From Eubacterium sp. (lineage in GTDB: Bacteria; Bacillota; Clostridia; Lachnospirales; Lachnospiraceae): a DNA stretch of 64,000 nt. The notes beneath the pieces were generated by a model. That model had not been told where the DNA came from. It ran no database searches and was given only the letters and a program-made list of their open reading frames with translations. Position numbers and translations under genes: made by a program. Location of the stretch: assembly GCA_024683035.1 (NCBI GenBank), contig JAIKYQ010000127.1, positions 3,821-67,820 of the forward strand. The letters run 5' to 3'. Positions 32,501 through 46,227 of the stretch are shown here, in pieces. Positions within the stretch are counted from its first letter, which is position 1, and the number at the start of each line of letters is the position of its first letter.

Positions 32501-33150
32501 CAGTTGTTTTTGTAAATATACAGCGTATCCTTCTGGGACACGTCCAGATGATAGACTGCCTTCTGCTGTTTATCCAGAGAAAGCAGGATCGGTTCTTTTT
32601 TCCCGCTGCTGATTAGAAATTCTTCCAGATGCTGGTAACTGACCGGATTGCGTACCATCCCCTTATACAGGGGCAGATAGACTACATTTTTTCCGTTCAG
32701 GATTTTGGGAAAGGACGGATTCGTAAACAGACGGAAGCCTTCCCGCATGTTCTTACGGCAAAGCTGTTCAAAGTCTTCCAGGGTCCTGATCTGAGGGTCG
32801 AAGCTGTCCCCGGACGCATCGATGATGATTGCGTCGACCGGGACCGTATACTCTGCATAGTTGCTGCTGATCAGGATCGAGCCGTGGATCTCGTCCTCCG
32901 GCTTCAGGCCTTTGGTGTCGACCCCGAAGAGTATCTCGGACTCTTCTCCGCCGAATTCGCCCGTCGCCAGCAGGATCCTGTGGTCGTCGGAGGAGACTCT
33001 GCCGAACACTTCGCTTCCGTCCGCCGCCCGGATCGTAAACGAAGATTTCCATTGTTCCCCGCGGGGTATGCGCAGCGAAAAGGACTCCTCGGAAAGCAGG
33101 AGTTTGGGAAGGTCATATACAAAATATGGTGTTTTTCGTGACTTACTCAT
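29533..33150 (-). CDS. DUF5717-like large protein (1205 aa)
   Basis: Long ORF translationally coupled to the DUF5716-like gene; ITRLYEYYM and GIFVKEFLLFYGE motifs recalled for the family. Confidence 0.75.
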   Translation of the reverse strand: MSKSRKTPYFVYDLPKLLLSEESFSLRIPRGEQWKSSFTIRAADGSEVFGRVSSDDHRILLATGEFGGEESEILFGVDTKGLKPEDEIHGSILISSNYAEYTVPVDAIIIDASGDSFDPQIRTLEDFEQLCRKNMREGFRLFTNPSFPKILNGKNVVYLPLYKGMVRNPVSYQHLEEFLISSGKKEPILLSLDKQQKAVYHLDVSQKDTLYIYKNNWGWLHISIEVEGDFLEVDKTSLTTDDFIGKVYGLEYMVHRDQIGSGRAFGKIRIRTIHQELVYEVEASSRDESEIRPAAVRSRRISWLIRDFLKLRQRRLDYRTWQDTSALTVGEMLEEDPRDVLAFLYKAYLYYTHDDNAKALEALWPIKDGSILTETIEQEAIYLWLAKKVGLLPQESRNLEPELRRFYRQEPDNYTLLWLLQQETGADKAAPSERLQQLEDCFDAGCISPFLYEDAWEMLTKEEALLRRLSPFMVQVLCFGQKQGLMTNGLLKRSAFLSANLKTWSGTVYRLLSRGYEECPEDEILEAICQLLIKGDPIRKECFPWYARAIERDLRITRLYEYYMETYDAPASEVLPLPVRMYFATNIHTLGEKKRALLYASVILHQEEDPTGYANYTRHMRDYALESLRRGKIDRNYAVLYEHFFSKPETPEIASLMTRMLFVQRVTVSEKDVRQIVVCHHALKKEEYFPIKDGVSYPRIYTEDACLLFEDERHRRFASSITCTREPLFHIRDIAQACMYQAVDDPGLELYLCKEKAFQMDVNSRSVEDYRMAERNPAFTDNYRNIVRRKLLEYDLEYPDREMAPDALPQGKIDVFAKADRAATAQLLIRESRYDDAFYVVSEYGYEQVPVELMLRLASRLILQKEYAYDEELLCLTAYVFWQGKYDEVMLRYLSMYYEGSVHGLCILWECLRGFQLELLPLEEKILLQSMETRQFPDHETEILRSYISQPGRQDVIAAYLTYLSEYYFLGGRQTAGAVFAAVEQAIRQGDLEEDVCKLALLKHYAEAGVENRTLAGRKPAPIDMARDLLKQMNDKGYRFEFYRKLPAKITQAYQVEDKVFIEEQLTPDSRVILHYQRKEQNQEPGEWISEPVRHVFGGIFVKEFLLFYGETLTYYLRIMQNGAIRNTDTYEITLADMDTAGNTRYKLLNHMLEAQDHGEEEELRKTWKQYCGQEAAVEKSLQLIREIPQTESGMESIQGEPEES

Positions 33151-33212
33151 ACTATTTCCAGTATATACTACATCGAAGCGGAATTCAATGTGGCTTGCGA
33201 TATTATAGAATA

Positions 33213-33435
33213 GTTTCTAAGACGGACGATTTCTGCATACAATATATTTTTCCTCCACACCAGGGCAACGCAGCTTCCAAGCTAAGTGCCAACTGCGACT
33301 AAGGTTCTTATGTGTCTCAAAGAGCCACAACGAACCTAAGTCTTCGTAGACACTGGATCTTGTAAGTCTGCTAAAAACGCCCCTTAAAAGTGTTCCGGAA
33401 AAACACATTGTATGCGGAAATCTGTTTTAGCAAAC
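33213..33435. repeat. Long imperfect hairpin element, copy A
   Basis: GATTTCTGCATACAATATATTTTTCC / GGAAAAACACATTGTATGCGGAAATC outer arms; GACTAAGGTTC / GAACCTAAGTC inner arms. Confidence 0.8.
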
Positions 33436-33473
33436 GGCTGCAAAGGGCATCCCTGCTCGATACAGCCTCTATC

Positions 33474-33643
33474 CCCCATGCTTTTGCCGCTTGCCTGAAC
33501 CACTTCGCTGAGCTAACGGTTCACTCCGACTAAGTGTCCGGAATATTCATGAAGGCTGTATTCATATCCCGGACACTAAGTCTGCGTAAACCGTGGATCT
33601 CAGCTTCGTTCCATTCAGAATGCGCGCTTACAAAAGCACGGGG
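33474..33643. repeat. Long imperfect hairpin element, copy B
   Basis: TGCTTTTG/CAAAAGCA, GCTGAG/CTCAGC, GACTAAGTGTCCGG/CCGGACACTAAGTC. Inverted homologue at 44384-44574. Confidence 0.85.
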
Positions 33644-33666
33644 CCATCGGCTCAAACCCTCAGCAT

Positions 33667-33878
33667 CCCGGTCGGATACAGAACCTTACAAGTCGACTGT
33701 CGGAGCATGGCCGGTCCTTAGCGAGTTCCGACCCGCCGGGCTACTAAGTTTACTAAAGCTCACTAAGGGCCCGGCATGCATCGCACGTAAGCTTCGCACT
33801 TCGTTGCACTCGTGCTCAGCAAGTGCTCATAACGAAGCGCGAGCGTGTCGACGGTGAGGTTACTGTGATCCGGACGGG
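33667..33878. repeat. Branched hairpin element downstream of fbp
   Basis: Outer CGGAT-ACAG-AACC-TTAC-GTCGAC / GTCGAC-GTGA-GGTT-CTGT-ATCCG enclosing two inner hairpins. Confidence 0.65.
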
Positions 33879-33899
33879 GGCGTCCGGCAGGCTATACCG

Positions 33900-35855
33900 T
33901 CAGCGCTCTGCGATCAGGCCGCTGCGGTAGGCGGTCAGCAATTCCTTCAGTTCTTCTATGCGTTCCTGCAGTTTCTTGCCGGTATCGGTGTCGGCCACAT
34001 ACATGCGGTGCGGCGCCAGCATGACACTGATCTTTTCAGAATGGATGTCGGTCTCCCGGTCGATGGCATCTTCGGTGGACGTAAACGGTTTATGGGCCAC
34101 CAGGCGCATGCCGTAGGAATTGTAGATCAGCGTGTAGCCGGCAATGCCGGTCGTACCCTGATAGGCTTTGGAGAAGCCGCCGTCGATGACGAGGACTTTG
34201 CCGCCGCACTTGACTGGGCTTTCCCCCTTCTTCTGTTTTACGGGGACATGCCCGTTTACGATATGGGCATGCTTATCCAGCCCGAATTCCCCAAGGATGT
34301 TGTCCATCACCGCTGCGTTGTCGATCAGCTTGTAATACGGATTCTTCTTCTCTTCGTGCGTTTCTTTTTCTGCCAGGAAATACCGTTCAAAGGTTGCCAT
34401 TTTGGTCTTCCCGAACAGCGGGGATTTCGGTCCGCTCCAGATATACCACAGGATGTCGCGCCCTTTGTCGCGCTCCTTTTCGTCGACGGCAAAAAAAGCT
34501 TTGCGCACATGGGCTTCCAGCTCCTGATAGAGCTTCTTCCCGGCATATTTCTTTCCGTAAATGTTCACGGAGAGCAGTTTTCCGTTTTCATCCAGCGGCA
34601 TGCAGCCGTGATACAGCAGGTTGTTGTTATAGACCAGATACAGGCTGCCCTTGTTGAGCAGGAAATTCATATGGCTGTGCAGTTTGTCGCAGTGCAGGAA
34701 CGCGGTCTGCAGCTTGTCCATGATCATCTTTTCGATCGGGGAAAGTTTGTAAGGATCCTTTGGATCCACGGTCGGGAAGTTCTTATCCAGCAATTCGTAT
34801 TCTTTCCCGTCGATCCGGATCGTGCCTTTTTCATAATCGATCTTATCGAGCAGGAGACGGTCGTCCATGTCGAAGCTGCGGCGCCGTTTGATCAGCTGGC
34901 CTTCCAGCTTGAACTGGATGATTGATATGGCCTTGTGCATTTTTTCGTTCATGGTCGCCTGGATCTGGTCGATGGACGGCCCGCCCTTGCTGTGGAACTC
35001 CGTACACGGATCATTGCCATAGGTCTCCATAGCAAAAGTGGCCAGCGGCAGCATATTGATGCCGTAGCTGTCTTCCAGAATATCCAGGTTGCCGTAGCGG
35101 GAACAGATCCGGACCACGGTAGCGATACAGGCCAGTGAGCCGGCCGCCGCCCCCATCCAGAGGATGTCGTGATTGCCCCACTGGATATCAAGGGAATGAT
35201 AGCTCATCAGCCGGTCCATGATCCGGTCCGGGCTCGGACCTCTGTCGTAGATATCTCCCAGGATGTGCAGATGGTCCACGACCAGACGCTGGATCAGATA
35301 ACTCAGGGCGATCACGAACGGTTCTCCCCGCCCGGTATCTATGATCGCGTCGATGATGGTGTTGTAGTATTCTTCCTTGTTCAGAACCTCCGGTTTTTCC
35401 GTGATCAGTTCTTCAATCACAAAGGCAAAGTCTTCCGGAAGCGCTTTGCGCACTTTGGAGCGTGTGTATTTGGAGGAAGTCTGCTTGCAGACCTCGATCA
35501 GACGGTACAGCGTGATCCGGTACCAGTCGTCCATGTTTTTTTCGGTCTTCTTGATCTGCGCAATCTTTTCCTGCGGATAGTAGATCAGTGTAGCCAAGGC
35601 CTGTTTGGATTTTTCCGAGAAGGTGTGCCCGAACACTTCATCGATCTTCTTTTTCACCGATCCCGAACCGTTGCGCAGCACATGGGAAAACGCCTCGTAT
35701 TCTCCGTGTATGTCGGTAATGAAATGCTCGGTTCCTTTCGGCAGACGCAGGATTGACTCTAAATTGATGATCTCCGTCGATGCTTTGGCAATCGACGGAT
35801 ACAGTTCCGCCAGCCGCTCCAGATAATGTAAATCCAATGTGATCTGCTTGTTCAT
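33900..35855 (-). CDS. fbp: Fructose-1,6-bisphosphatase class III
   Basis: LPKGTEHFITDIHGEY, GDIYDRG, QWGNHD, NGHVPVK, IDGGFSKAY. Confidence 0.96.
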   Translation of the reverse strand: MNKQITLDLHYLERLAELYPSIAKASTEIINLESILRLPKGTEHFITDIHGEYEAFSHVLRNGSGSVKKKIDEVFGHTFSEKSKQALATLIYYPQEKIAQIKKTEKNMDDWYRITLYRLIEVCKQTSSKYTRSKVRKALPEDFAFVIEELITEKPEVLNKEEYYNTIIDAIIDTGRGEPFVIALSYLIQRLVVDHLHILGDIYDRGPSPDRIMDRLMSYHSLDIQWGNHDILWMGAAAGSLACIATVVRICSRYGNLDILEDSYGINMLPLATFAMETYGNDPCTEFHSKGGPSIDQIQATMNEKMHKAISIIQFKLEGQLIKRRRSFDMDDRLLLDKIDYEKGTIRIDGKEYELLDKNFPTVDPKDPYKLSPIEKMIMDKLQTAFLHCDKLHSHMNFLLNKGSLYLVYNNNLLYHGCMPLDENGKLLSVNIYGKKYAGKKLYQELEAHVRKAFFAVDEKERDKGRDILWYIWSGPKSPLFGKTKMATFERYFLAEKETHEEKKNPYYKLIDNAAVMDNILGEFGLDKHAHIVNGHVPVKQKKGESPVKCGGKVLVIDGGFSKAYQGTTGIAGYTLIYNSYGMRLVAHKPFTSTEDAIDRETDIHSEKISVMLAPHRMYVADTDTGKKLQERIEELKELLTAYRSGLIAER

Positions 35856-35893
35856 GCTCTCCCTCCTCGTAAGTTATGATGTATTTCAAAATC

Positions 35894-35970
35894 GATCATG
35901 CGCGCCCCAAGTACACTCGCCCACTTGCTAGCGAGCTTGCGTGGACTCGGTACTTTTGGCCGCTGTGATC
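35894..35970. repeat. REP-like imperfect hairpin between polC and fbp
   Basis: GATCA...AAGTAC-ACTCG-CCCAC...GTGG-ACTCG-GTACTT...TGATC. Confidence 0.65.
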
Positions 35971-38900
35971 ATGTAATATCAAACAGACTGATCTGATCCG
36001 ACTCCGGTATGCCCTTCAGGATCCCGAATCGATCCAGCGTATCGGTGATGGTCCTGCCCGCTTTGGCTCTTCTCCGGAAATCGTCTTTGGACAGGAACTG
36101 CCCTTCCCGGGCGGCTATGACAATACTGTCGGCCGCTTTATCCCCCAGCCCTTCGATGGCATCCAGCGACGGCATCAGGCCTCCGTCCACGATCTGGAAC
36201 CGATGGGCATCGACCCGGTACAAGTCGATCGGCACGAAGGAGAATCCGCGGGCATACATTTCCTGTACGATCTTCATGTCTTTGATGGTTTCTTTTTCCT
36301 GACTGGTCAGCGAGTCTTTCCGGCTCCTGTACTCCCGCAGGTATGCTTCCAGCTGGTTCCTTCCCAGGCACATCTTTTCATAGGAAAAAGCAGACGCCCG
36401 GATGGAAAAATAGGCTGCGTAATAAGCCAGCGGATAATAGATCTTATACCACGCGATCCGGTAAGCCATCATGACATACGCCACGGCATGGGCCTTCGGG
36501 AACATATACTTGATCCGTTTGCAGGACCAGATGTACCAGTCCGGCACGTCATGTGCCCGCATTTCGGACTCCCATTCGGGCTTCAGGCCTTTGCCTTTCC
36601 GCACGCTTTCCATGATGGTAAAGGACTGTTCACTTTCGAGCCCGCAGCCGATCAGATAGGCCATGATGTCATCACGCGTGCAGATCGCGGTCGAGATCGT
36701 GCATTTGTTTTCATCGATCAGGGTCTTGGCATTGCCGATCCAGACGTCCGTGCCATGGGACAGACCGGAGATCCGGATCAGGTCCGAAAAGCTTTTGGGC
36801 TTTGTATCCAGCAGCATCTGGATAACGAAATCCGTGCCGAACTCCGGAACACCCAGACAGCCGAGCGGGCAGCCGTCGATATCGTCCGGGGTGATGCCGA
36901 GCGCACTGGTGTCCTTAAACAGGGTCATGACCTTTGGTTCGTCCAGCCGCACTTTCGTGGCGTCTGTCCCGGTCAGGTCCTCCAGCATACGGATCATCGT
37001 CGGATCATCATGCCCGAGGATGTCCAGCTTCAGCAGGTTGGCATCGATGGAATGATAATCAAAATGCGTGCTGATGATATCGGATTCCGGATCGTCCGCC
37101 GGATGCTGCACCGGTGTAAACGCGTTGATATCCTCTCCGATCGGCAGTACGATGATCCCGCCGGGATGCTGGCCGGTTGTCCGGCGGATCCCGACGCAGC
37201 CCTGTACGATCCGGTCGATCTCGCAGCTGCGTTTATAGCTGTTCTGTTCTTCGTAATAATTTTTGACAAACCCGTAGGCCGTTTTGTCCGCCATCGTACC
37301 GATGGTCCCGGCCCGGAATGTCTGGCCGTCGCCGAAGATGACTTCGGTATATTTGTGCGCCTTGGTCTGATATTCCCCGGAAAAATTCAGGTCGATATCC
37401 GGCTCCTTATTTCCCTTGAATCCCAGAAATGTCTCGAACGGAATGTTGAATCCCAGCTTTTGCAGCGGTTCGCCGCAGACCGGACAGACCCGGTCCGGCA
37501 GGTCGCAGCCGACACGGCCTTCTTTGACTGCCTGACGGACAGTATCTGAGTCGAAATCCACATAGTGGCACTTTCCGCAGAGATAATGCGGCGCCAGCGG
37601 GTTGACTTCCGTGATCCCGGACATGGTGGCTACGAAAGACGAGCCGACCGATCCCCGGGAACCGACCAGATATCCGTCTTCATTGCACTTCCATACCAGC
37701 TTCTGCGCAATGATGTACATGACGGCATACCCGTTTGAGATAATGGAAGTCAGTTCTCTTTCGAGCCGTTTTGCCACGATATCCGGGAGCTCGGAACCGT
37801 AGATCTCATGCGCACGCCGTTCACAGATCTCCCGCAGCTGTTTGTCGGAATCCTGAATGACCGGCGGGAATTTGCCTGCCCGGATCGGACTGATCTTTTC
37901 TATACTGTCGGCGATGCGCCGCGGGGTTTCCAGCACGACTTCCCGGGCCTTATCCTCGCCGAGGTACGAAAAAGCTTCCAGCATTTCTTCCGTTGTCCTG
38001 AAAAAACAGGCCAGGCCGTCATGCTCATCCAGGTCTTTCCTCTTTTTGCCGCGCATGATGATCCGTCTGTATTCCACATCCTCCGGATCCATGTAATGCA
38101 CATCCCCGGTCGCAGCGACCGGTTTTTGGAACTGTCCGCCGAGTTTTACGATCCGGCGTCCGATCTCCTGCAGATCCTCCAGACTCTGAATAGCTTCTTC
38201 GTTTTCGTCTTCTATCAGATGCCGGTCATTTTCCGGTGGCTGGATCTCCAGATAATCATAGAAGGAGACCAGGCGGGCCAGCTCTTCTTCCGCGATCCCG
38301 GAAAGCAGGCCCTGGAAAACTTCTCCTTCGGAACAGCCGGAACCCACCAGAATACCCTCCCGGTACCGGTTGACAAGGCTCTTGGGGAGCTTGGGCTTAT
38401 TCTGGATATACTGCAGATGTGAGGCGGATACCAGCCGGTACAGGTTGACCCGGCCCGTCTCATTCTGCGCCAGCAGGACGGCATGATGAGCCCGCAGCTT
38501 CCGGACCGCATTCGTATCCATGGCACCCTGTGTATTCATCTCTTCCAGCGTACTGATCCCGCGGTCTTCCAGCATCTGCACAAAACGGACAAAAATCTCC
38601 GCCGTACAGGCTGCGTCATCTACCGCGCGATGATGATGTCCGAGCGGTACCTGCACCGCTTTGGCGACTGTCTCCAGTTTGAACCGGGAGAGCTGCGGCA
38701 GCAGATACTGTGCCAGAGCCACGGTATCGATCCGGGTAAAATCGTGCGGTATGCCCTGGTCCTCGCAGGCTTTCTGGATAAAGCCTACGTCAAAATCGGC
38801 ATTGTGTGCCACCAGGACATCCTTCCCGCAGAATGCCAGAAACTCGGGCAGAACCTCACGGATCGTCGGCGCATCTTCGACCATGGAATCCGAGATCCCG

Positions 38901-40507
38901 GTCAGCTGTTCGATCCGGAACGGAATCGGCACTTCCGGATTCACGAACGTGGAAAACCGGTCTGCGATCTCGCCGTTCCGGACACGGACGGCTCCGATCT
39001 CGATGATCCGGCAGGTCAGATTGGAAAGACCGGTCGTCTCAATATCGAAAACAACAAACGAATCCTGCAGGGTCTGTCCTTTAGTGTTCACCGCGATCCC
39101 GCGCAGATCGTCGACCAGGTATACCTCACAGCCGTACAGTACCTTAAAAGGAGCCGAGACTTTTTTCAGTTCCTCTTTGGACGCGTCCGGATGTTCTTTG
39201 CCATAGGCCTCTCTGTATTCTTTATCGATCCCCTGCATGGCCTTGTTGGCATCCGGAAATGCCTGGACGCCGCCGTGATCCGTGACCGCTATGGCCGGAT
39301 GGCCCCATTTCCAGGCCCGCCGGATCAGGTCTTTGACATCGCTCACACCGTCCATCTCACTCATTTTGGTGTGCGCGTGCAGCTCCACCCGTTTGACCGG
39401 CCAGGTATCCATACGCGTTTCCCTGAAATCCCTGCTTTTCCGGATTCCCTGAATACCGGAAATGATCAGTTCATGTTCATAGGCATCCAGCATGGCCCGT
39501 CCGCGCACACGGACAAAGGCTCCGGTTTTCAGACCTTTTTTAAGAGGCTCCGCCTGTTCGGGATCCGCAAAGATCTTACCGCGGATGGTATCGGTGAAAT
39601 CGGTAATGGCAAACAGCAGCAAATGCTTGCCGCTTTTGAGTTCCCGTGTTTCCTGCGCCGTGATCTGACCGCGCAGGATCACGTCGCCGCTGGTTTCATC
39701 CAGCTCTGCGATCGGCGTGCTGTCCCCGTCGAAGTTCCTTCCGTACAGCAGATCCGGATCCTGCCGGGAATCGAACGATGCTGCCTGTTCTTTTCTGCCG
39801 CCCTTTGCTTTTGTCTTCTTTGTTTTTCCGGCTGCCGGCGCTGCTTCTGCTCCCCGGTCCGTACCGGCATCCCAGGGTACCTCGACCGACTCGGCAGAAG
39901 ATCCTGCCTGTTCTTCTTCTCCATGTCCGGATCCGGCAAAAATACGTCTTGCTTCTTCCCGGAAGCCGGCTTCTTCCTCTTCTTTATGGATGTTTTTTTT
40001 CAGTGGCTGCCACTTTATCACAACCCGGACCGGCAGATGACACCGGTCTTCAAAGATCTGTGTCAGATACAGAAACAGCTCTTTCTGTTTTTCATGTCCG
40101 GTCAGCGTATCTTCCAGGGAAACTTCCAGTACGTCCGGCTGTGGAAAGGATACGGAAGCCGTCTGCAGTACATGGCAGAGCAGCCGGTCCTGCTCCCGGC
40201 ATTCCTGCAGCATGCTGGATCTGTAATCTTCATAGAATCGTTCCGGCGTATACTGGCCGGAAAGAAAGAACTGTTCTTTGATGCGGACACGGATATCCGT
40301 ATCCGAAAAAAGCTGGCGTCCGATCTCGTCCTCCAGCCTGTAAATATACTTTTTATGGATCCAGCGGCTGCTTGCGAGCTGCACATGCAGACGATGCGTT
40401 TTCCGGTCGATCGCGACATGCTCTACCCTGGCAGGCGACAGATACTCCTGCATCGCGCCTTCCAGTTTAAGATGCGGAAACACTTCCGCGATCGGTTTTC
40501 CACGCAT
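35969..40507 (-). CDS. polC: DNA polymerase III PolC-type
   Basis: ELHAHTKMS (PHP), VFDIETTG (exonuclease), GSRGSVGSS, PDIDLNFS, YMFPKAHA. The ATG at 40507 overlaps the ispG stop. Confidence 0.97.
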   Translation of the reverse strand: MRGKPIAEVFPHLKLEGAMQEYLSPARVEHVAIDRKTHRLHVQLASSRWIHKKYIYRLEDEIGRQLFSDTDIRVRIKEQFFLSGQYTPERFYEDYRSSMLQECREQDRLLCHVLQTASVSFPQPDVLEVSLEDTLTGHEKQKELFLYLTQIFEDRCHLPVRVVIKWQPLKKNIHKEEEEAGFREEARRIFAGSGHGEEEQAGSSAESVEVPWDAGTDRGAEAAPAAGKTKKTKAKGGRKEQAASFDSRQDPDLLYGRNFDGDSTPIAELDETSGDVILRGQITAQETRELKSGKHLLLFAITDFTDTIRGKIFADPEQAEPLKKGLKTGAFVRVRGRAMLDAYEHELIISGIQGIRKSRDFRETRMDTWPVKRVELHAHTKMSEMDGVSDVKDLIRRAWKWGHPAIAVTDHGGVQAFPDANKAMQGIDKEYREAYGKEHPDASKEELKKVSAPFKVLYGCEVYLVDDLRGIAVNTKGQTLQDSFVVFDIETTGLSNLTCRIIEIGAVRVRNGEIADRFSTFVNPEVPIPFRIEQLTGISDSMVEDAPTIREVLPEFLAFCGKDVLVAHNADFDVGFIQKACEDQGIPHDFTRIDTVALAQYLLPQLSRFKLETVAKAVQVPLGHHHRAVDDAACTAEIFVRFVQMLEDRGISTLEEMNTQGAMDTNAVRKLRAHHAVLLAQNETGRVNLYRLVSASHLQYIQNKPKLPKSLVNRYREGILVGSGCSEGEVFQGLLSGIAEEELARLVSFYDYLEIQPPENDRHLIEDENEEAIQSLEDLQEIGRRIVKLGGQFQKPVAATGDVHYMDPEDVEYRRIIMRGKKRKDLDEHDGLACFFRTTEEMLEAFSYLGEDKAREVVLETPRRIADSIEKISPIRAGKFPPVIQDSDKQLREICERRAHEIYGSELPDIVAKRLERELTSIISNGYAVMYIIAQKLVWKCNEDGYLVGSRGSVGSSFVATMSGITEVNPLAPHYLCGKCHYVDFDSDTVRQAVKEGRVGCDLPDRVCPVCGEPLQKLGFNIPFETFLGFKGNKEPDIDLNFSGEYQTKAHKYTEVIFGDGQTFRAGTIGTMADKTAYGFVKNYYEEQNSYKRSCEIDRIVQGCVGIRRTTGQHPGGIIVLPIGEDINAFTPVQHPADDPESDIISTHFDYHSIDANLLKLDILGHDDPTMIRMLEDLTGTDATKVRLDEPKVMTLFKDTSALGITPDDIDGCPLGCLGVPEFGTDFVIQMLLDTKPKSFSDLIRISGLSHGTDVWIGNAKTLIDENKCTISTAICTRDDIMAYLIGCGLESEQSFTIMESVRKGKGLKPEWESEMRAHDVPDWYIWSCKRIKYMFPKAHAVAYVMMAYRIAWYKIYYPLAYYAAYFSIRASAFSYEKMCLGRNQLEAYLREYRSRKDSLTSQEKETIKDMKIVQEMYARGFSFVPIDLYRVDAHRFQIVDGGLMPSLDAIEGLGDKAADSIVIAAREGQFLSKDDFRRRAKAGRTITDTLDRFGILKGIPESDQISLFDIT

Positions 40508-41571
40508 CACTTCTTCCAATGCAGCAGTTCCTCCCGGAGCGCCTCCAGCAGTTGATCCTCCGGTACTTTCCGGATGATCTCTCCCTGCCGGATCAGCAGT
40601 CCTTCTCCTATCCCGCCTGCAATGCCGAGATCGGCTTCCCGCGCTTCTCCCGGTCCATTCACGACACAGCCCATCACCGCCACTTTGATATCCAGCGGCA
40701 TATCCCGCACCATATCCTGCACCTGTTCCGCCAGACGGATCAGATCGATCTGTGTTCTGCCGCAGGTCGGACAGGACACGACCTCGACGCCTCCTTTTCC
40801 GAGGCCTGCCGCTTTCAGGATCGCTTTGGCCGCCCGGATTTCTTCCAGCGGGTCTCCGGTCAGCGACACCCGCAGGGTATCTCCGATCCCTTCATGAAGC
40901 AGGATCCCCAGGCCTACCGCTGATTTGACGGTGCCCTCATAGGGTGTTCCGGCTTCGGTGATGCCGATATGCAGCGGATAATCGGCCTTTTCCGCCAGGA
41001 GTTCATACGCCTGCACACACAGAGATACGTCGGATGCTTTGATGCTGATGACGATATCGGAAAACTGCATCCCTTCCAGGACCGCTGCCTGCTCCAGGGC
41101 ACTTTCCACCAGAGCCTCCGCAGTTACACCGCCGTATTTTTCCAGCAGCCGTTTTTCCAGCGAGCCGCTGTTCACGCCAATCCGGATCGGGATGCCGCGC
41201 TCTCTGGCCGCATCGGCCACGGCACGCACTTTGTCCGCACTGCCGATATTTCCCGGATTGATCCGCACTTTGTCGACGCCGCTTTCGATAGAAGCCAGGG
41301 CCAGCCGGTAATCGAAATGGATATCTGCCACCAGCGGAATGTGAATGCGGCGGCGGATCTCCCGCAGCGCTCCTGCCGCTTCCTGCGTGGGCACCGCACA
41401 CCGGATGATCTCGCAGCCGGCGTCTTCCAGCGCCAGGATCTGCTGCACGGTTGCTTCTACGTCTTCGGTTTTTGTATTTGTCATGGACTGGATCGCGATA
41501 GGGGCACCGCCGCCGATCACGACCCCGCCGATCACGACCTGCCGGGTGTTTCTTACCAACGTCTTTTTCAT
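40507..41571 (-). CDS. ispG: HMB-PP synthase IspG
   Basis: [41 protein letters not shown]. Confidence 0.97.
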
Positions 41572-41760
41572 AAACTGATGTACCTGTCCTTAAGCCAACC
41601 GGTGCTGCCGGGCGCGCACGCGCCGCATTTCTATTATAGCACAGATACATGCCCGGGGACTATACTTCCGGAAATGCAAAACAGGCTGCGGACAGATATC
41701 CCCGGCGCTCCCTTTTGCGGGAACGCCGGTGATAGCTGGTCCACAGCCTGCCGGATTTAT

Positions 41761-42252
41761 TCATTGTTTTCTTCGATACGTCCGGAACGTGAATTCCATG
41801 TTGTGGCAGGTCTGCTCCTCACTCTCTTCGGTCAGCTCCCACTCCGGCATGTCATCCAGATTCGGAAAGAAGGCATCTGCCTGATACGCATAATCGACCC
41901 TGGTCACATACGCGGTGTCGCAGTATGGCAGAAGCAGCCGGTAGATCTCGGCTCCGCCGATCACATATACTCTGTCCGTTTCGATATCCCGGATCAGCTG
42001 CTGCAGCTCTTCCACGCTGTGTACCACGGCTGCGCCTTTCACGGAGAAAGACGGATCCCGTGACAGGATAATGTTGTCCCGGTCTGCCAGCGGTCTGCCG
42101 CCGGGCAGGCTTTCCAGTGTTTTCCTGCCCATGACGACCACATTGCCTGTGGTGTGTTCACGGAAAAACCGCATATCTGACGGGATATGTACCAGAAGCC
42201 TGTTCTGGAAACCGATCCCCCAGTTTCTGTCTGCATTCAGGATCGCGCGCAT
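41761..42252 (-). CDS. folA: Dihydrofolate reductase
   Basis: MRAILNAD.NWGIG, VVMGRKT.ESLP, RPL, VIGGAEIY, DAFFP. Confidence 0.95.
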   Translation of the reverse strand: MRAILNADRNWGIGFQNRLLVHIPSDMRFFREHTTGNVVVMGRKTLESLPGGRPLADRDNIILSRDPSFSVKGAAVVHSVEELQQLIRDIETDRVYVIGGAEIYRLLLPYCDTAYVTRVDYAYQADAFFPNLDDMPEWELTEESEEQTCHNMEFTFRTYRRKQ

Positions 42253-42262
42253 CGGTTCCCCT

Positions 42263-43675
42263 TTATACTGTCTGTTCAGCAGTTTCTTCTTCAGCCGTAT
42301 CTTCGCCGTTCCAGGCAGTGTCTTCCACGCCCAGCTGGGAAGAAGTGTCGATCTCGCCCTGATCGGTCGTGTAGGTGACACCGTAAGACTCCGGAATGAT
42401 CTGGATCATGGTCTTGCCCGGATTCAGATACAGCGGGGAGCCGTCTCCGGCAAAGTAATGGGTGCGGTCCTGCTCCGAGTCTTTCTTCCAGGTGATCGGG
42501 ATCGCTTTTCCGTCGGTAAAGTACATACCGCGGCCTTCCGAGAACATGTTCAGCTCCAGCAGCGGTGTCTCGGGAATGATCTCCTGATCCACGAACTGTA
42601 CCAGCACGTTCTTGAACTTCAGCTGTTCGCCGGTCTCCATGTCCACATGCGGTGCGCTGTACTCAAAACGATAGTACAGACGATCTTCCGGATTGTATTC
42701 AAACCACGGATTGTTGACCGGATACGGCAGCTGGATCGCCGTCGCATTCACGCCGGCCGCCAGTTCTGTGTCTGCCACATTGAAATGCAGGTTCGGCGTG
42801 TAGCCTTCCGGATAGCTGCGGTCCACACCGAGGCTGTCAGCGATGTCTTCCAGCCCCTGGCCCGTGACATAGGCATTGTGCGGCGCCACACGGTCGGATG
42901 TCCGGAAGAAGCCCATGCTTCCGTCATAGAACATACCGTTGATCGTTGTACGGCCTTCTCTGTTGATCAGATCTTCCGCAACAAAGCTCCATCCGAAATG
43001 TGTATAAACCGCTTCGTTGTCATCGGACATGAACAGATAGTAATGACGGCAGCTGCGGACCGGTCCAATCTTTTCCAGATCGCGCGGTTCCTGGAAAACA
43101 GCCATCATACGTGTGATATCCGATTCTACGAAGGCTTCGTACAGGATATCCGCATAGATGATACCAGACTGCGGAACAGCCGGATCCAGGTTGTTGATCA
43201 TAACAGCGAAAGGACGCTGTTCGCCAATGGCTTTATCGATCGGTTCTCCGGTCAGATAACTGTACATCTGTCCTTCCGGAAGGGCCGGCTTTTCTGCTTC
43301 TGCTGCCGGTGCCGCTTCCGGTGCCGGTTCTGCTTCCGGTGCCGGTTCTGCTTCTGCTGCCGGTTCTGCTTCCTGCGCCGGTGCTGCTTCCGCTGTGAGC
43401 GGGGCGGCTTCTGCTGCAGGGGCGGCTTCTGCTGCCGGGGCGGCTTCCGCTGCCGGAGCTGCTTCTGCTGCCGGTGCCGCTTCTACTGCCGGCGCCGCTT
43501 CCTGTACCGGTGCCGCTTCCGCTACCGGTGCCGGCACCTCTTCAGCTGCTGCCTTCGGCGCAGCCACTGCCGATACTTTTTCCACCGGTTCTACCTGTAC
43601 CTGATTTGCGCATCCGGCCAGAATGGATGCTCCCAAAATCAGGCAAAGCATACTGCTGAGTAGTTTTTTCTTCAT
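42263..43675 (-). CDS. DUF3048-like lipoprotein with an Ala/Glu/Pro linker
   Basis: LAGC lipobox; RPFAVMINN...PQSG...YE..VE..ITR...GPVRSCR...R.APHN. Confidence 0.85.
   Translation of the reverse strand: MKKKLLSSMLCLILGASILAGCANQVQVEPVEKVSAVAAPKAAAEEVPAPVAEAAPVQEAAPAVEAAPAAEAAPAAEAAPAAEAAPAAEAAPLTAEAAPAQEAEPAAEAEPAPEAEPAPEAAPAAEAEKPALPEGQMYSYLTGEPIDKAIGEQRPFAVMINNLDPAVPQSGIIYADILYEAFVESDITRMMAVFQEPRDLEKIGPVRSCRHYYLFMSDDNEAVYTHFGWSFVAEDLINREGRTTINGMFYDGSMGFFRTSDRVAPHNAYVTGQGLEDIADSLGVDRSYPEGYTPNLHFNVADTELAAGVNATAIQLPYPVNNPWFEYNPEDRLYYRFEYSAPHVDMETGEQLKFKNVLVQFVDQEIIPETPLLELNMFSEGRGMYFTDGKAIPITWKKDSEQDRTHYFAGDGSPLYLNPGKTMIQIIPESYGVTYTTDQGEIDTSSQLGVEDTAWNGEDTAEEETAEQTV
43290..43560 (-). repeat. 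18-bp coding tandem repeats (AEAAPA / AEAEPA)
   Basis: Visible in both the DNA and the translation. Confidence 0.85.
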
Positions 43676-43732
43676 AGATACCCCCTTTTGGTTCAGTGAT
43701 CCTGCCCAGTATACCATAAATTTTTCGTGCAG

Positions 43733-43774
43733 AAAAGACTGCCGTCATCCGAAAGGGACATCCGGCAGTCTTTT
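43733..43774 (-). terminator. Terminator after mscL
   Basis: AAAAGACTGCCG...CGGCAGTCTTTT. Confidence 0.7.
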
Positions 43775-43789
43775 CCAGTGTCTTCTCTG

Positions 43790-44215
43790 TTATTCTTTAA
43801 GCTCAGACGTGCAGTGCGGGCAGCGGGTGGCGGAAACCGGAATCTCGGTTTTGCAGAACGGACACTCTTTGGTTGTGACCTCTTCCGCCACTTCCTCTTT
43901 CTTTCTCAACTCCGCTGCACGGTTCATGGCACGGATGATCAGGAAAATAACCAGTGCGATCAGCAGGAAGTTGATGATCGCCGCCACAAACGTACCCAGT
44001 CCGAGTACCGGCGCCTCTTCGCCGGAACCCATGACGATGTTCCACTGTTCAAAGCTGATGCCGCCGAAAATAGCAGATATGACAGGCATGATGATGTTGT
44101 CCACCAGGGCTGTGACTATCGCCGTGAACGCACCGCCGATGATGATACCGACTGCCATATCCATCACGTTGCCGCGAGAGATGAATTCCTTAAATTCTTT
44201 TGCAAAGCTGCTCAT
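43790..44215 (-). CDS. mscL: Large-conductance mechanosensitive channel with C-terminal zinc ribbon
   Basis: KEFKEFISRGNVMDMAVGIIIGGAF, INFLLIA, CPFC...CPHC. Confidence 0.95.
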   Translation of the reverse strand: MSSFAKEFKEFISRGNVMDMAVGIIIGGAFTAIVTALVDNIIMPVISAIFGGISFEQWNIVMGSGEEAPVLGLGTFVAAIINFLLIALVIFLIIRAMNRAAELRKKEEVAEEVTTKECPFCKTEIPVSATRCPHCTSELKE

Positions 44216-44383
44216 GTTGTACTCCCCTTTCCCGGACAAAGAGATCTGTCCTGCTGGTCCCGCCGGACACCGCCTGTCCTGAAACATTAAATTTTTATAA
44301 ATACATAGTCAGTATACCACGAATCCCCGCCGCAGGAAACCTTCATTTCCGGAATTGGCGGGGATTTTTTCAAAACGTAACCA

Positions 44384-44574
44384 GCAGCCGGCAGACACAT
44401 ACTTTTACAAGCGCGCATCTGAATGGAACGAAGCTGAGATACACTGCTTACGCAGACCAGGCGGACGGGATGAGAATAAATCATTCATGAACATCCCGGC
44501 CGCCCGGTCGAAGTTAGCAGTAAGCTCAGCGGAGTGGTTCAGGCAAGCGGTAAAAGCATGCGTCCGCCGGCTGC
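44384..44574. repeat. Long imperfect hairpin element, copy C (inverted relative to B)
   Basis: GCTCAGCGGAGTGGTTCAGGCAAGCGGTAAAAGCATG and AAGCGCGCATCTGAATGGAACGAAGCTGAGAT match the reverse complement of copy B. Confidence 0.85.
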
Positions 44575-44613
44575 GTCATATTCTATTAAAACCTATATCC
44601 GATCATTCCGTGA

Positions 44614-46227
44614 TCAAAGCTTCGGGCCGGCTGCTACCAGTGCTTTTCCGGCTTCGTTGCCTTCGTACTTGGCGAAGTTCTTGATGAAGCGCTCAGCCAG
44701 GTCTTTGGCTTTTTCATTCCATTCTTCCGGAGTGGCGTAGGTATCGCGCGGATCGAGAATGGCGGGATCTACACCCGGAAGCTCTGTCGGGACTTCCAGA
44801 TTGAACATCGGGATCTGTTTTGTAGGAGCTTTCAGCACATCGCCGTTCAGGATAGCGTCAATGATGCCGCGAGTATCCTTGATGGAGATCCGCTTGCCGG
44901 TTCCGTTCCAGCCTGTATTGACCAGATAGGCCTTGGCGCCGCACTTCTCCATTCTCTTGACCAGCTCTTCCGCATATTTGGTCGGATGCAGCTCCAGGAA
45001 AGCCTGTCCGAAGCAAGCAGAGAAAGTCGGAGTCGGCTCGGTGATGCCGCGTTCCGTACCGGCCAGTTTGGCTGTGAAACCGGACAGGAAGTAATACTTG
45101 GTCTGTTCCGGTGTCAGAATGGAAACCGGCGGCAGCACGCCGAACGCATCCGCTGAAAGGAAGATGACGTTTTTGGCATCCGGTCCTGCGGAGATGGGGC
45201 GTACGTTTTTGACGATCTTTTCGATATGCTCGATCGGATAAGATACACGGGTATTCTCCGTGACGCTCTTATCGGCAAAATCGATCTTGCCTTCTGCATC
45301 CAGTGTAACATTTTCCAGCAGGGCATTCCGTTTGATGGCGTTATAGATATCCGGTTCGGATTCTTTGTCCAGGTTGATGACCTTCGCATAGCAGCCGCCC
45401 TCAAAGTTGAAGACACCGTTGTCATCCCAGCCGTGCTCGTCATCCCCGATCAGCAGTCTCTTCGGGTCTGTGGAAAGCGTGGTCTTGCCGGTTCCGGAAA
45501 GGCCGAAGAAGATGGCCGTGTTTTCGCCGTTCATATCGGTGTTGGCGGAGCAGTGCATGGAAGCAATGCCCTTCAGCGGCAGGTAGTAGTTCATCATCGA
45601 GAACATACCTTTTTTCATCTCGCCGCCGTACCAGGTGTTGATGATGACCTGCTCACGGCTGGTGATGTTGAATGCTGCCACTGTCTCGGAATTCAGACCG
45701 TAATCCTTATAGTTTTCCACTTTAGCCTTGGACGCATTGTAAACCACAAAATCCGGCTCGAAGGTTTCCAGTTCTTCTTCGGTCGGAATGATGAACATAT
45801 TTTTGATGAAATGAGCCTGCCAGGCAACTTCCATGATGAAGCGGATCGCCATGCGCGTATCTTTATTGGTTCCGCAGAACGCATCCATGACAAACAGTCG
45901 CTTGTTGGACAGCTGTTCCTGCGCGATCTTTTTCATGTCAGCCCAGGTCGCTTCGCTCATCGGATGGTTGTCGTTCTTGTATTCGTCGGTTGTCCACCAG
46001 ACCGTATCTTTGGAATTTTCGTCCATCACGATGTATTTATCTTTGGGTGAACGTCCCGTATAAATACCTGTCATGACGTTCACTGCGCCGAGTTCACTGA
46101 TCTGCCCCTTCTCATAGCCTGTCAGATCCGGGCGGATCTCTTCCTCATACAGGAACTCAAAAGAAGGATTATGCACGATTTCTGTTGTTCCCGTAATACC
46201 GTATTTACTCAAATCCAGATTTGCCAT
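44614..46227 (-). CDS. pckA: Phosphoenolpyruvate carboxykinase (ATP)
   Basis: [43 protein letters not shown]. Confidence 0.97.

Follow-up and report, generated by a model that had tools for sequence, protein, structure and literature searches.

A family of structure-constrained palindromic repeats dispersed between core genes in Lachnospiraceae

Three long hairpins in the window (the whole 64,000-nt stretch of DNA that was analysed), here called A, B, and C, are copies of a real, multicopy, gene-less palindromic repeat that some Lachnospiraceae of gut and rumen carry scattered among their core genes. Though the kind of repeat is familiar (REP/ERIC/MITE-like), the family itself is uncatalogued. 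Its copies are constrained in structure, present or absent at orthologous sites, neutral in orientation, packed at gene ends, and used as landing pads by insertion sequences (ISs). On balance, we think it probable that this non-coding family, confined to Lachnospiraceae, is selfish, non-autonomous mobile DNA whose core is read as folded DNA by a protein acting in trans.

Results

Copy A (33213..33435, forward strand) is the hairpin module of its subtype, with a core at 33257-33392. The locus (G000:C60:37079-37205) scored 58.4 bits with our covariance model R1 and 68.8 bits with R2. The initial annotation described A as sharing the core of B and C with unrelated outer arms; its outer arms are indeed unlike those of B and C, and A belongs to a subtype of its own, one often seen in the sister species G018. 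A short linker hairpin (33436..33473, forward strand; alignments with flanks and direct reading) lies between A and B and is similar to the left flank of a second hairpin module, H2. Copy B (33474..33643, forward strand; core 33489-33628, R1 155.5 bits) is a hairpin module of type H1. Beyond it, module BLAST, alignment, and sequence identified an H2 module with a long apical insert, H3b, followed by the terminal repeat that closes the composite B element on its 3' side (together 33662..33896, forward strand; DNA fold z −3.7). The end of this element lies 3 nt from the stop codon of fbp (33900-33902).

Copy C (44384..44574, reverse strand; core 44410-44548, R1 154.1 bits) is an H1 module, belongs to the most abundant subtype, and lacks an H2 module; thirteen other copies are 89–94 per cent identical to it. 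Its 5' terminal inverted repeat (44574..44597, reverse strand), found by a terminal-repeat search and alignments, begins 16 nt past the stop codon of pckA (44614-44616), in the same orientation as that gene, which was identified by Pfam (PEPCK). The genes around copies are housekeeping genes, including the pairs DUF5717-fbp and pckA-mscL, genes for SecA and glycogen synthase, and others. Six copies seemed to share an upstream gene of ~483 aa; this was rejected, as the genes there are unrelated housekeeping genes.

The sequences of A, B, and C and their shared core read as first annotated, and all three fold as long hairpins. With RNA parameters each forms one long hairpin (z −7.0 for A, −6.1 for B, −10.6 for C), and none of 200 shuffles was as stable. 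With DNA parameters, folds of both strands of the three cores gave z between −3.6 and −5.8 in five of six strands; the sense strand of the A core gave z −1.8, with 9 of 200 shuffles folding as well.

The hairpin is one module of a composite element that also includes terminal inverted repeats and second and third hairpin modules. Inverted termini of 10–25 nt enclose the composite unit in this MAG, where the second and third hairpin modules are optional and a single hairpin linked to an unrelated H2 module is the predominant form. In G018, G072, G117, and other genomes, copies as a rule form inverted doublets. Other genera have different termini, and it is the central hairpin that is conserved. 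Internally deleted, decayed, and module variants of the repeat are also present.

The core spans ~115–140 nt within whole hairpins of 170–220 nt. Its inner stem of 4–5 bp varies in sequence among copies while pairing is kept, and the unpaired stretches that flank it are conserved. This pattern, first noticed in three copies, held across eighty-two distinct sequences: 94.1 per cent of cells were paired, compared with 71.2 per cent in shuffles and 30–38 per cent with partners slid, and changes had occurred on both sides at 32 of 34 pairs. An independent replicate of sixty-four sequences from other genera gave 93.2 per cent paired cells against 75.8 per cent in shuffles. What had been described as loops are two symmetric motifs, each CTNCG opposite CTNCG, in which two conserved pyrimidine–pyrimidine mismatches surround one partly covarying pair. 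The mismatches were unpaired in 72–76 of 80 cells, and the enclosed pair was standard in 59 of 79. A small asymmetric loop of the core is also fixed. The initial annotation further held that mismatches do not favour G-U, and the larger sample agrees: non-Watson–Crick cells included 35 G.T and 55 A.C, and the G.T share of 19 per cent is close to the ~17 per cent expected by chance. In the inner motif, 27 of 79 cells at the N-N' pair were G.T; there, RNA would fit too.

We scanned this 2.2-Mb MAG, which is 82 per cent complete, with R1 and found thirty-three sense-strand loci (~30–163 bits), the lowest-scoring of which are internally deleted copies; the reverse strands scored ~22–48 bits. One subtype accounts for fourteen copies with a mutual identity of 89–100 per cent. 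These loci, together with further copies in relatives, bear out the earlier claim that A, B, and C belong to a family. Outside this MAG, the repeat core turned up in one of twenty further species of its genus and in 11 of the 150 other Lachnospiraceae genera searched (7 per cent), and in none of 113 genomes from thirty-three other families of the order. Carrier genomes hold from one to more than thirty copies. Sequence collections contain at least 120 stretches with the exact motif, nearly all from named Lachnospiraceae, with Blautia and Dorea among the carriers. A search of PLSDB plasmids gave no match, and literature searches found no description of the hairpin repeat family.

Rfam 15 at gathering thresholds identified only a tRNA in the whole window. 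At E up to 10, the region 33100-33950 had only chance miRNA and snoRNA matches, far below threshold. The repeat matches no Rfam family, including Clostridiales-1 (RF01699), HEARO, IS605-orfB, and the RAGATH motifs, and a further carrier locus (L232) gave no match either. The original view of a structure-selected element with no partner gene in the window is supported.

Copies have been gained and lost between species. At G000:C166:41706 an operon spacer of 17 nt corresponds to a 505-nt doublet at the same place in G018. The polC-fbp spacer (35856..35968) is empty in this MAG and holds an inverted A-type/B-type doublet in G018. The spacer downstream of fbp shows the opposite, being filled in this MAG and without the repeat in G018. 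Copy B and a G018 copy are 95.6 per cent identical over 91 nt, while the adjoining fbp gene is 80 per cent identical. Filled and empty sites were seen between species, but no strain-level empty site was found in a metagenome pattern scan or in ENA contigs. Two short ENA contigs were uninformative, their sequence breaking off within the repeat or beginning 12 nt ahead of the junction. At the genus level, the pckA-mscL spacer has diverged too far for an empty site to be recognized. No target-site duplication was established: the composite unit has TA at either end, which may belong to the terminal repeats, and the empty and filled orthologous sites are too diverged to align. In this MAG, the hairpin is the insertion target of an IS110 element.

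Orientation was neutral by two measures. In tandem gene spacers across genomes, twenty-three copies were sense and twenty-nine antisense. Relative to the GC-skew strand, the counts were 48 and 49 overall and 40 and 41 for single copies. These counts bear on whether the repeat acts as RNA. The family could be a repeated structured ncRNA, whose copies would be transcribed, either by read-through or from a promoter of their own, into a folded RNA that binds a protein through its conserved internal loops or acts on the adjacent mRNA. Stabilization of 3' ends and translational effects on neighbouring mRNA have been described for REP and ERIC. The strong covariation and conserved unpaired nucleotides would suit such a role, as would the strand asymmetry of the motif (150–163 bits sense, 30–48 reverse) and the tolerance of G.U at the inner N-N' position. 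In addition, about a third of the copies in this MAG (~11–13 of 33) start 0–10 nt past a co-oriented stop codon and hence would be transcribed. The helices, however, show no G-U enrichment, copies lie in random orientation to their flanking genes, the units yielded no conserved signal for a promoter or a terminator, and the Rfam searches were negative. An inverted doublet would also place one sense and one antisense copy in each transcript. We consider a repeated ncRNA unlikely. Because complementarity is restricted to Watson–Crick pairs and there is no orientation bias with respect to transcription, a role at the DNA level is better supported than one at the RNA level. Watson–Crick-only covariation, conserved strand-specific mismatches, and the lack of strand bias together are a clear example of selection acting on folded DNA, which points to a structure-reading protein.

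The initial annotation had suggested a REP- or attC-like element recognized by a protein such as an HUH nuclease or a recombinase encoded elsewhere; the DNA-level part of this proposal stood up better than its RNA alternative, and the specific RAYT or IS200-type HUH partner is unsupported. A REP/REPIN-like or IS200/IS605-derived (PATE-like) element would be moved as folded ssDNA by a Y1 HUH enzyme (RAYT/TnpA). The pattern of complementarity fits a hairpin recognized as DNA, the inverted doublets in other genera recall REPINs, and Y1_Tnp (PF01797) is present in three of five carriers, namely this MAG and two others. Y1_Tnp was not found, however, in G117, which is 99 per cent complete and holds at least eleven copies, nor in G018. 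Only one of six Y1 loci has a copy of the repeat within 1.5 kb, and the ends of the IS200/IS605 element in carrier G072 do not resemble the core. For IS200/IS605, as for ssDNA transposons, strand-biased insertion is expected, whereas the repeat shows no bias between leading and lagging strands. The unit is also four to six times the length of a REP and lacks the REP-type conserved 5' tetranucleotide. Movement by a Y1 enzyme is therefore, in our view, very unlikely.

Other candidate enzymes fared no better. A search of five carriers for IS630-type DDE_3 found none, and we rejected both Y1_Tnp and DDE_3 as consistent partners; neither tracks the repeat. No enzyme gene recurred within 3 kb of ~140 copies; clustering of the neighbours yielded only histidine-kinase and ABC-ATPase paralogues, at about chance frequency (estimated by hand). 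No gene flanked by the terminal repeats was found in this MAG, at its completeness of 82 per cent. A 2.2-kb interval between two inverted copies in G166 was examined and rejected, as it holds a methionine aminopeptidase and an HTH gene and no transposase.

That no linked transposase was found also fits a host-serving DNA site, a hairpin or cruciform bound by a chromosomal protein in nucleoid organization or in the control of replication or recombination. Such a site would have spread by recombination, with IS landing being secondary. The loop motifs are conserved across genera, the two-fold symmetric motif suits a dimeric DNA-binding protein, and orientation is neutral. The distribution is very patchy, though, with the repeat in one of twenty species of the genus and in 7 per cent of genera, and copy number ranges widely. 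Near-identical subfamilies indicate recent bursts, decayed and internally deleted copies exist, and positions differ between sister species. Patchiness, bursts, decay, and shifting positions are typical of selfish spread and not of an essential host site, and we regard this alternative as very unlikely.

Discussion

We return to selfish, non-autonomous mobile DNA as the preferred reading. The stems appear free to change provided that the arms stay Watson–Crick complementary, while the CTNCG/CTNCG motifs and the small loop are held fixed. Most likely a protein acting in trans recognizes the core, which it would see as folded DNA (a hairpin or cruciform arm) and not as RNA. In this MAG the core is packaged with short terminal inverted repeats and optional hairpin modules, and in other genera it occurs as inverted doublets. 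Movement of the repeat itself by an enzyme in trans, the nature of that enzyme, and the recognition of a DNA form are what we infer from these patterns. A purely selfish MITE would not usually have a core conserved from one genus to another, and this conservation could instead reflect a host function.

A more specific, and tentative, possibility is that the core is a new type of folded-DNA recognition site: a hairpin with two two-fold-symmetric CTNCG/CTNCG mismatch boxes, read by a Lachnospiraceae enzyme that is neither a Y1 HUH nor an IS630-type DDE protein and copied or moved without strand bias. We think this unlikely. If true, it would represent a structure-guided mobility or recombination system without a described counterpart.

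Few interspersed palindromic repeats are known from Firmicutes, and this family is a well-defined addition for which there are two covariance models. It is carried by Lachnospiraceae that are abundant in gut and rumen, cultured Blautia among them. The repeats form insertion hot spots for IS110 and IS3 and are natural multicopy targets of a bridge-RNA recombinase. They also break MAG assemblies, and we advise masking or annotating them to avoid their being reported as novel ncRNAs.

Among known systems, ERIC/IRU and YPAL of Enterobacteria are imperfect palindromes of ~127 to ~168 bp. Like this repeat, they are palindromic over their whole length, within the range of 120–200 bp; they are intergenic, often near gene ends, and very unequal in copy number between related species. 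Both they and this repeat enlarge by insertions at internal sites, and no transposase is known for either. ERIC/IRU and YPAL differ in belonging to another phylum and in having no sequence relation to this repeat, which in many genera keeps both its covarying stems and its defined mismatch motifs and has no orientation bias relative to transcription.

Correia/NEMIS, RUP, and BOX are hairpin MITEs (IS630-type, with TA duplication) that share short terminal inverted repeats and TA-TA ends with our elements. They also share insertion polymorphism between species, internal deletions, and insertion beside or overlapping stop codons. In contrast to these MITEs, no parent insertion sequence was found for this repeat, and its conserved part is the central hairpin and not the termini.

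Integron attC sites, to which the initial annotation likened the hairpins, are imperfect palindromes with conserved structure, two paired boxes, and unpaired bases that mark one strand, and they act as folded DNA. The analogy fails on context, because attC sites lie in cassette arrays and the present copies are dispersed singly between core genes. The loop sequences of this repeat are also strongly conserved, and lengths and box layout differ.

REP, BIME, and REPIN sequences with RAYT (PMC3116915) are multicopy extragenic palindromes, as here, and inverted doublets occur in several genera carrying our repeat. REP/REPIN units are 20–40 nt long with a 5' tetranucleotide, whereas this unit is 115–190 nt long with two internal symmetric mismatch motifs, and the co-occurring RAYT gene that is typical there has no equivalent association here. 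REP sites are favoured by the IS110-family elements IS621, ISPpu9, and ISPpu10 (PMC11208160, PMC12288879, bioRxiv 10.64898/2026.03.19.712850); REP and this repeat share the property of being favoured landing sites for IS110-family elements.

The window hairpins

The hairpin repeats at 33213-33435 (A), 33474-33643 (B) and 44384-44574 on the minus strand (C) belong to a family that is real, statistically solid and uncatalogued, and that groups with the REP/ERIC/MITE-like palindromic repeats. Direct reading of the window recovered all three stretches and their common core, as the initial annotation had described them. Folded as RNA, each forms a single long hairpin with no shuffle as stable (A: -79.6 kcal/mol, z -7.0; B: -68.8 kcal/mol, z -6.1; C: -111.5 kcal/mol, z -10.6). 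With DNA parameters the three cores fold on both strands, the complement of the motif strand slightly better.

The gene neighbours place all three copies between core genes, as had been proposed. A DUF5717 gene and the gene for class-3 fructose-1,6-bisphosphatase (fbp) flank A and B, which together take up most of the intervening spacer, and the unit following B extends to 33896, 3 nt short of the fbp stop codon. C is in the pckA/mscL spacer, and an extra copy lies just beyond the window end (G000:C60:67899-68090, on the same contig). The Rfam comparison that had been suggested matched no family to the hairpins: a tRNA was the only match in the whole window, and the A/B region gave chance matches only. 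Adjoining copy C, at 44325-44372 on the plus strand, a GC-rich stem with a T-run after it resembles a terminator in the 'wrong' orientation, as pckA and mscL are both on the minus strand.

Structural constraint

Among 82 distinct sequences, standard pairs fill 94.1% of cells; shuffling the partners lowers this to 71.2% and sliding them to 30-38%. Both-sided changes are found in 32 of the 34 pairs, bearing out the earlier claim of covarying stems, and none of 500 shuffles attains any of five pairing measures. Partner shuffles ignore relatedness and hence do not give probabilities; the slid controls preserve it and are equally clear. RNAalifold finds 29/34 pairs compensatory in the seed alignment. 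An independent set of 64 distinct sequences from other genera, chosen by the right-arm motif and with no role in model building, gives 93.2% standard pairs (75.8% shuffled), with 26/34 compensatory.

The conserved loops are one motif used twice, reading CTNCG on both arms of the sense strand. When folded, CTNCG faces CTNCG, with C-G and G-C pairs enclosing a T.C and a C.T mismatch and with N-N' at the centre; both motifs have two-fold symmetry. At the mismatch positions, 72-76 of 80 cells are unpaired in the inner motif and 54 of 65-66 in the outer one, and the central N-N' is standard-paired in 59/79 and 38/67 cells, respectively. On either arm the two motifs are some 22 nt apart; between them come the covarying stem of 5 bp and an asymmetric loop that is conserved.

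A composite, multicopy unit

A covariance model of the family in this metagenome-assembled genome (R1, seeded with 30 sequences) sustained the claim of a family, extending it well beyond A, B and C. BLAST and R1 together give 33 sense-strand loci in the 2.24-Mb, 82%-complete assembly. Scores are about 55-163 bits for full-length copies and lower for those with internal deletions; the reverse strands at these loci score just 22-48 bits, and the motif is therefore strand-specific. The C subtype has fourteen copies (89-100% identity), and stems differ among B, A and a third subtype.

The hairpin with the shared core (H1) is just one module of a larger unit. Alignments that include the flanks show H1 bordered by short inverted termini, and most copies run from H1 to a second hairpin (H2), its apex optionally carrying an insert (H3a or H3b), and then to the right terminus. 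Variant units have H1 only, H2 only, apical deletions or, in one case, H1 cut down to its basal 7 bp. The loci retrieved from other genomes showed neither H2 nor H3. Roughly 11-13 of the 33 copies begin 0-10 nt past the stop codon of a co-oriented gene, which in two cases is supplied by the element terminus itself; others have their 3' end directly against a convergent stop codon.

Two further arrangements were observed. Over the approximately 50 nt that were compared, G000:C134:1-130 and G000:C150:10022-10151 share their flanking sequence and differ in what adjoins it: a full element's 5' end in one contig, the 3' end of an inverted, 5'-truncated element in the other. These alternative junctions may reflect strain heterogeneity, re-insertion in the opposite orientation at one site, or an assembly alternative. 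At G000:C208:2399-2442, a solo inverted left terminal repeat and a full element's left end meet head-to-head, making a small palindrome centred on TATA.

Gain, loss and distribution

Copies have been gained and lost between this genome and its sister species, G018. An inverted doublet of 505 nt in G018 occupies the position where two operon genes are separated here by 17 nt (G000:C166:41706). The polC-fbp spacer of G018 contains an inverted A-type/B-type doublet, compared with an element-free 113-nt spacer here (35856-35968); on the opposite side of fbp, this genome has A and B, and G018 lacks a copy and has an extra gene. B and its G018 counterpart are 95.6% identical over 91 nt, and fbp is 80% identical. 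The extra gene, between DUF5717 and fbp, encodes 390 aa (L186:529-1701). The polC-fbp spacer in the window has no H1-family copy but does include an imperfect palindrome of another kind or origin (35890-35962).

BLAST found the family in one of 20 other species of the genus. A second model, R2, seeded with 65 sequences from other genera, found it in 11 of the 150 other Lachnospiraceae genera covered (multicopy in five) and had no match in 113 genomes representing 33 further families of the order. A scan of one genome per species yielded at least 120 exact-motif stretches, nearly all from Lachnospiraceae; carriers among the matches listed include cultured Blautia schinkii, B. faecis, B. hominis, B. 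celeris and B. glucerasea, and Dorea and Acetatifactor MAGs. Four IMG/VR contigs match the motif, none scoring with R1 at the threshold used, and PLSDB plasmids gave no motif match.

RNA or DNA, and a partner enzyme

Structured RNA is expected to tolerate G-U. In the helices, G.T (35 cells) is not commoner than A.C (55 cells) and makes up 19% of non-Watson-Crick cells, about its chance share, in agreement with the initial annotation, which saw no G-U preference among mismatches. Across about 120 loci from many genomes, tandem gene spacers hold 23 sense and 29 antisense copies, convergent spacers 17 and divergent spacers 10, and no promoter or terminator pattern was associated with the units. 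A non-coding RNA family is unlikely given these results. Relative to local GC skew, the motif lies on the G-rich strand in 48 cases and on the C-rich strand in 49 (18 vs 13 in this MAG). We conclude that the constraint is one of DNA complementarity plus a strand-specific motif, and that insertion is neutral with respect to transcription and replication. Together these argue against an RNA role that depends on host transcripts and against single-strand transposition of the IS200/IS605 type.

The searches turned up no partner enzyme, and the HUH partner that had been suggested is not supported. Its domain, Y1_Tnp, occurs in three of five carriers; one that lacks it is 99% complete and has no fewer than 11 copies. 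Only one of six Y1 loci is near a copy, and the IS200/IS605 ends in another genome, G072, are unrelated to the repeat. With the even skew counts, this makes mobilisation as an HUH-dependent REP-like element improbable. A search of five carriers for the IS630-type DDE_3 domain, prompted by the TA-TA ends, gave no match. The MAG has no terminal-repeat-flanked gene, and clustering of all ORFs lying up to 3 kb from some 140 copies recovered just histidine-kinase and ABC-ATPase paralogues. That the repeat is a DNA site serving the host seems improbable to us as well. We lean, with modest confidence, towards non-autonomous mobile DNA: the repeat would move with functions supplied elsewhere, and a putative protein would recognise the hairpin core as folded DNA.

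Insertions at the repeat

Other sequences lie between inverted H1 copies in other genomes. In MAG MGBC116940, an IS3-family transposase (rve, HTH_21; L209:152-1342) sits between copies at about 1-60 and 1905-2029, and is probably a further insertion sequence that landed within a doublet. In Lachnospiraceae bacterium isolate A13_5.CF.DSS (CAJTAL010000035.1), two inverted copies bound 3.1 kb (L232:2175-5338) with no ORF of at least 60 aa, no Rfam match and no tandem repeats. GC falls to 25% mid-stretch, and the stretch may be decayed cargo or a large non-coding insert.

In this MAG, three H1 copies carry a 1603-bp IS110-family element at an identical point of their outer stem. The element is complete at G000:C227:~394-1996 (PF01548 and PF02371), and the same junction is found at contig ends at G000:C199:41808-41933 and G000:C94:5-130; a variant occupies a different, non-H1 site (G000:C90:11-136). 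A CT dinucleotide is repeated at both junctions. The element has a structured 269-nt leader, an 11-nt stretch of which agrees by eye with the left target flank at nine positions, and this likeness makes the leader a candidate bridge-RNA guide. The IS110 elements IS621, ISPpu9 and ISPpu10 home to REP-type repeats (PMC11208160, PMC12288879, bioRxiv 10.64898/2026.03.19.712850). Taken with the insertion in H1, this known homing makes H1 REP-like as a target: it shares with REP-type repeats the role of a landing site for IS110 elements.
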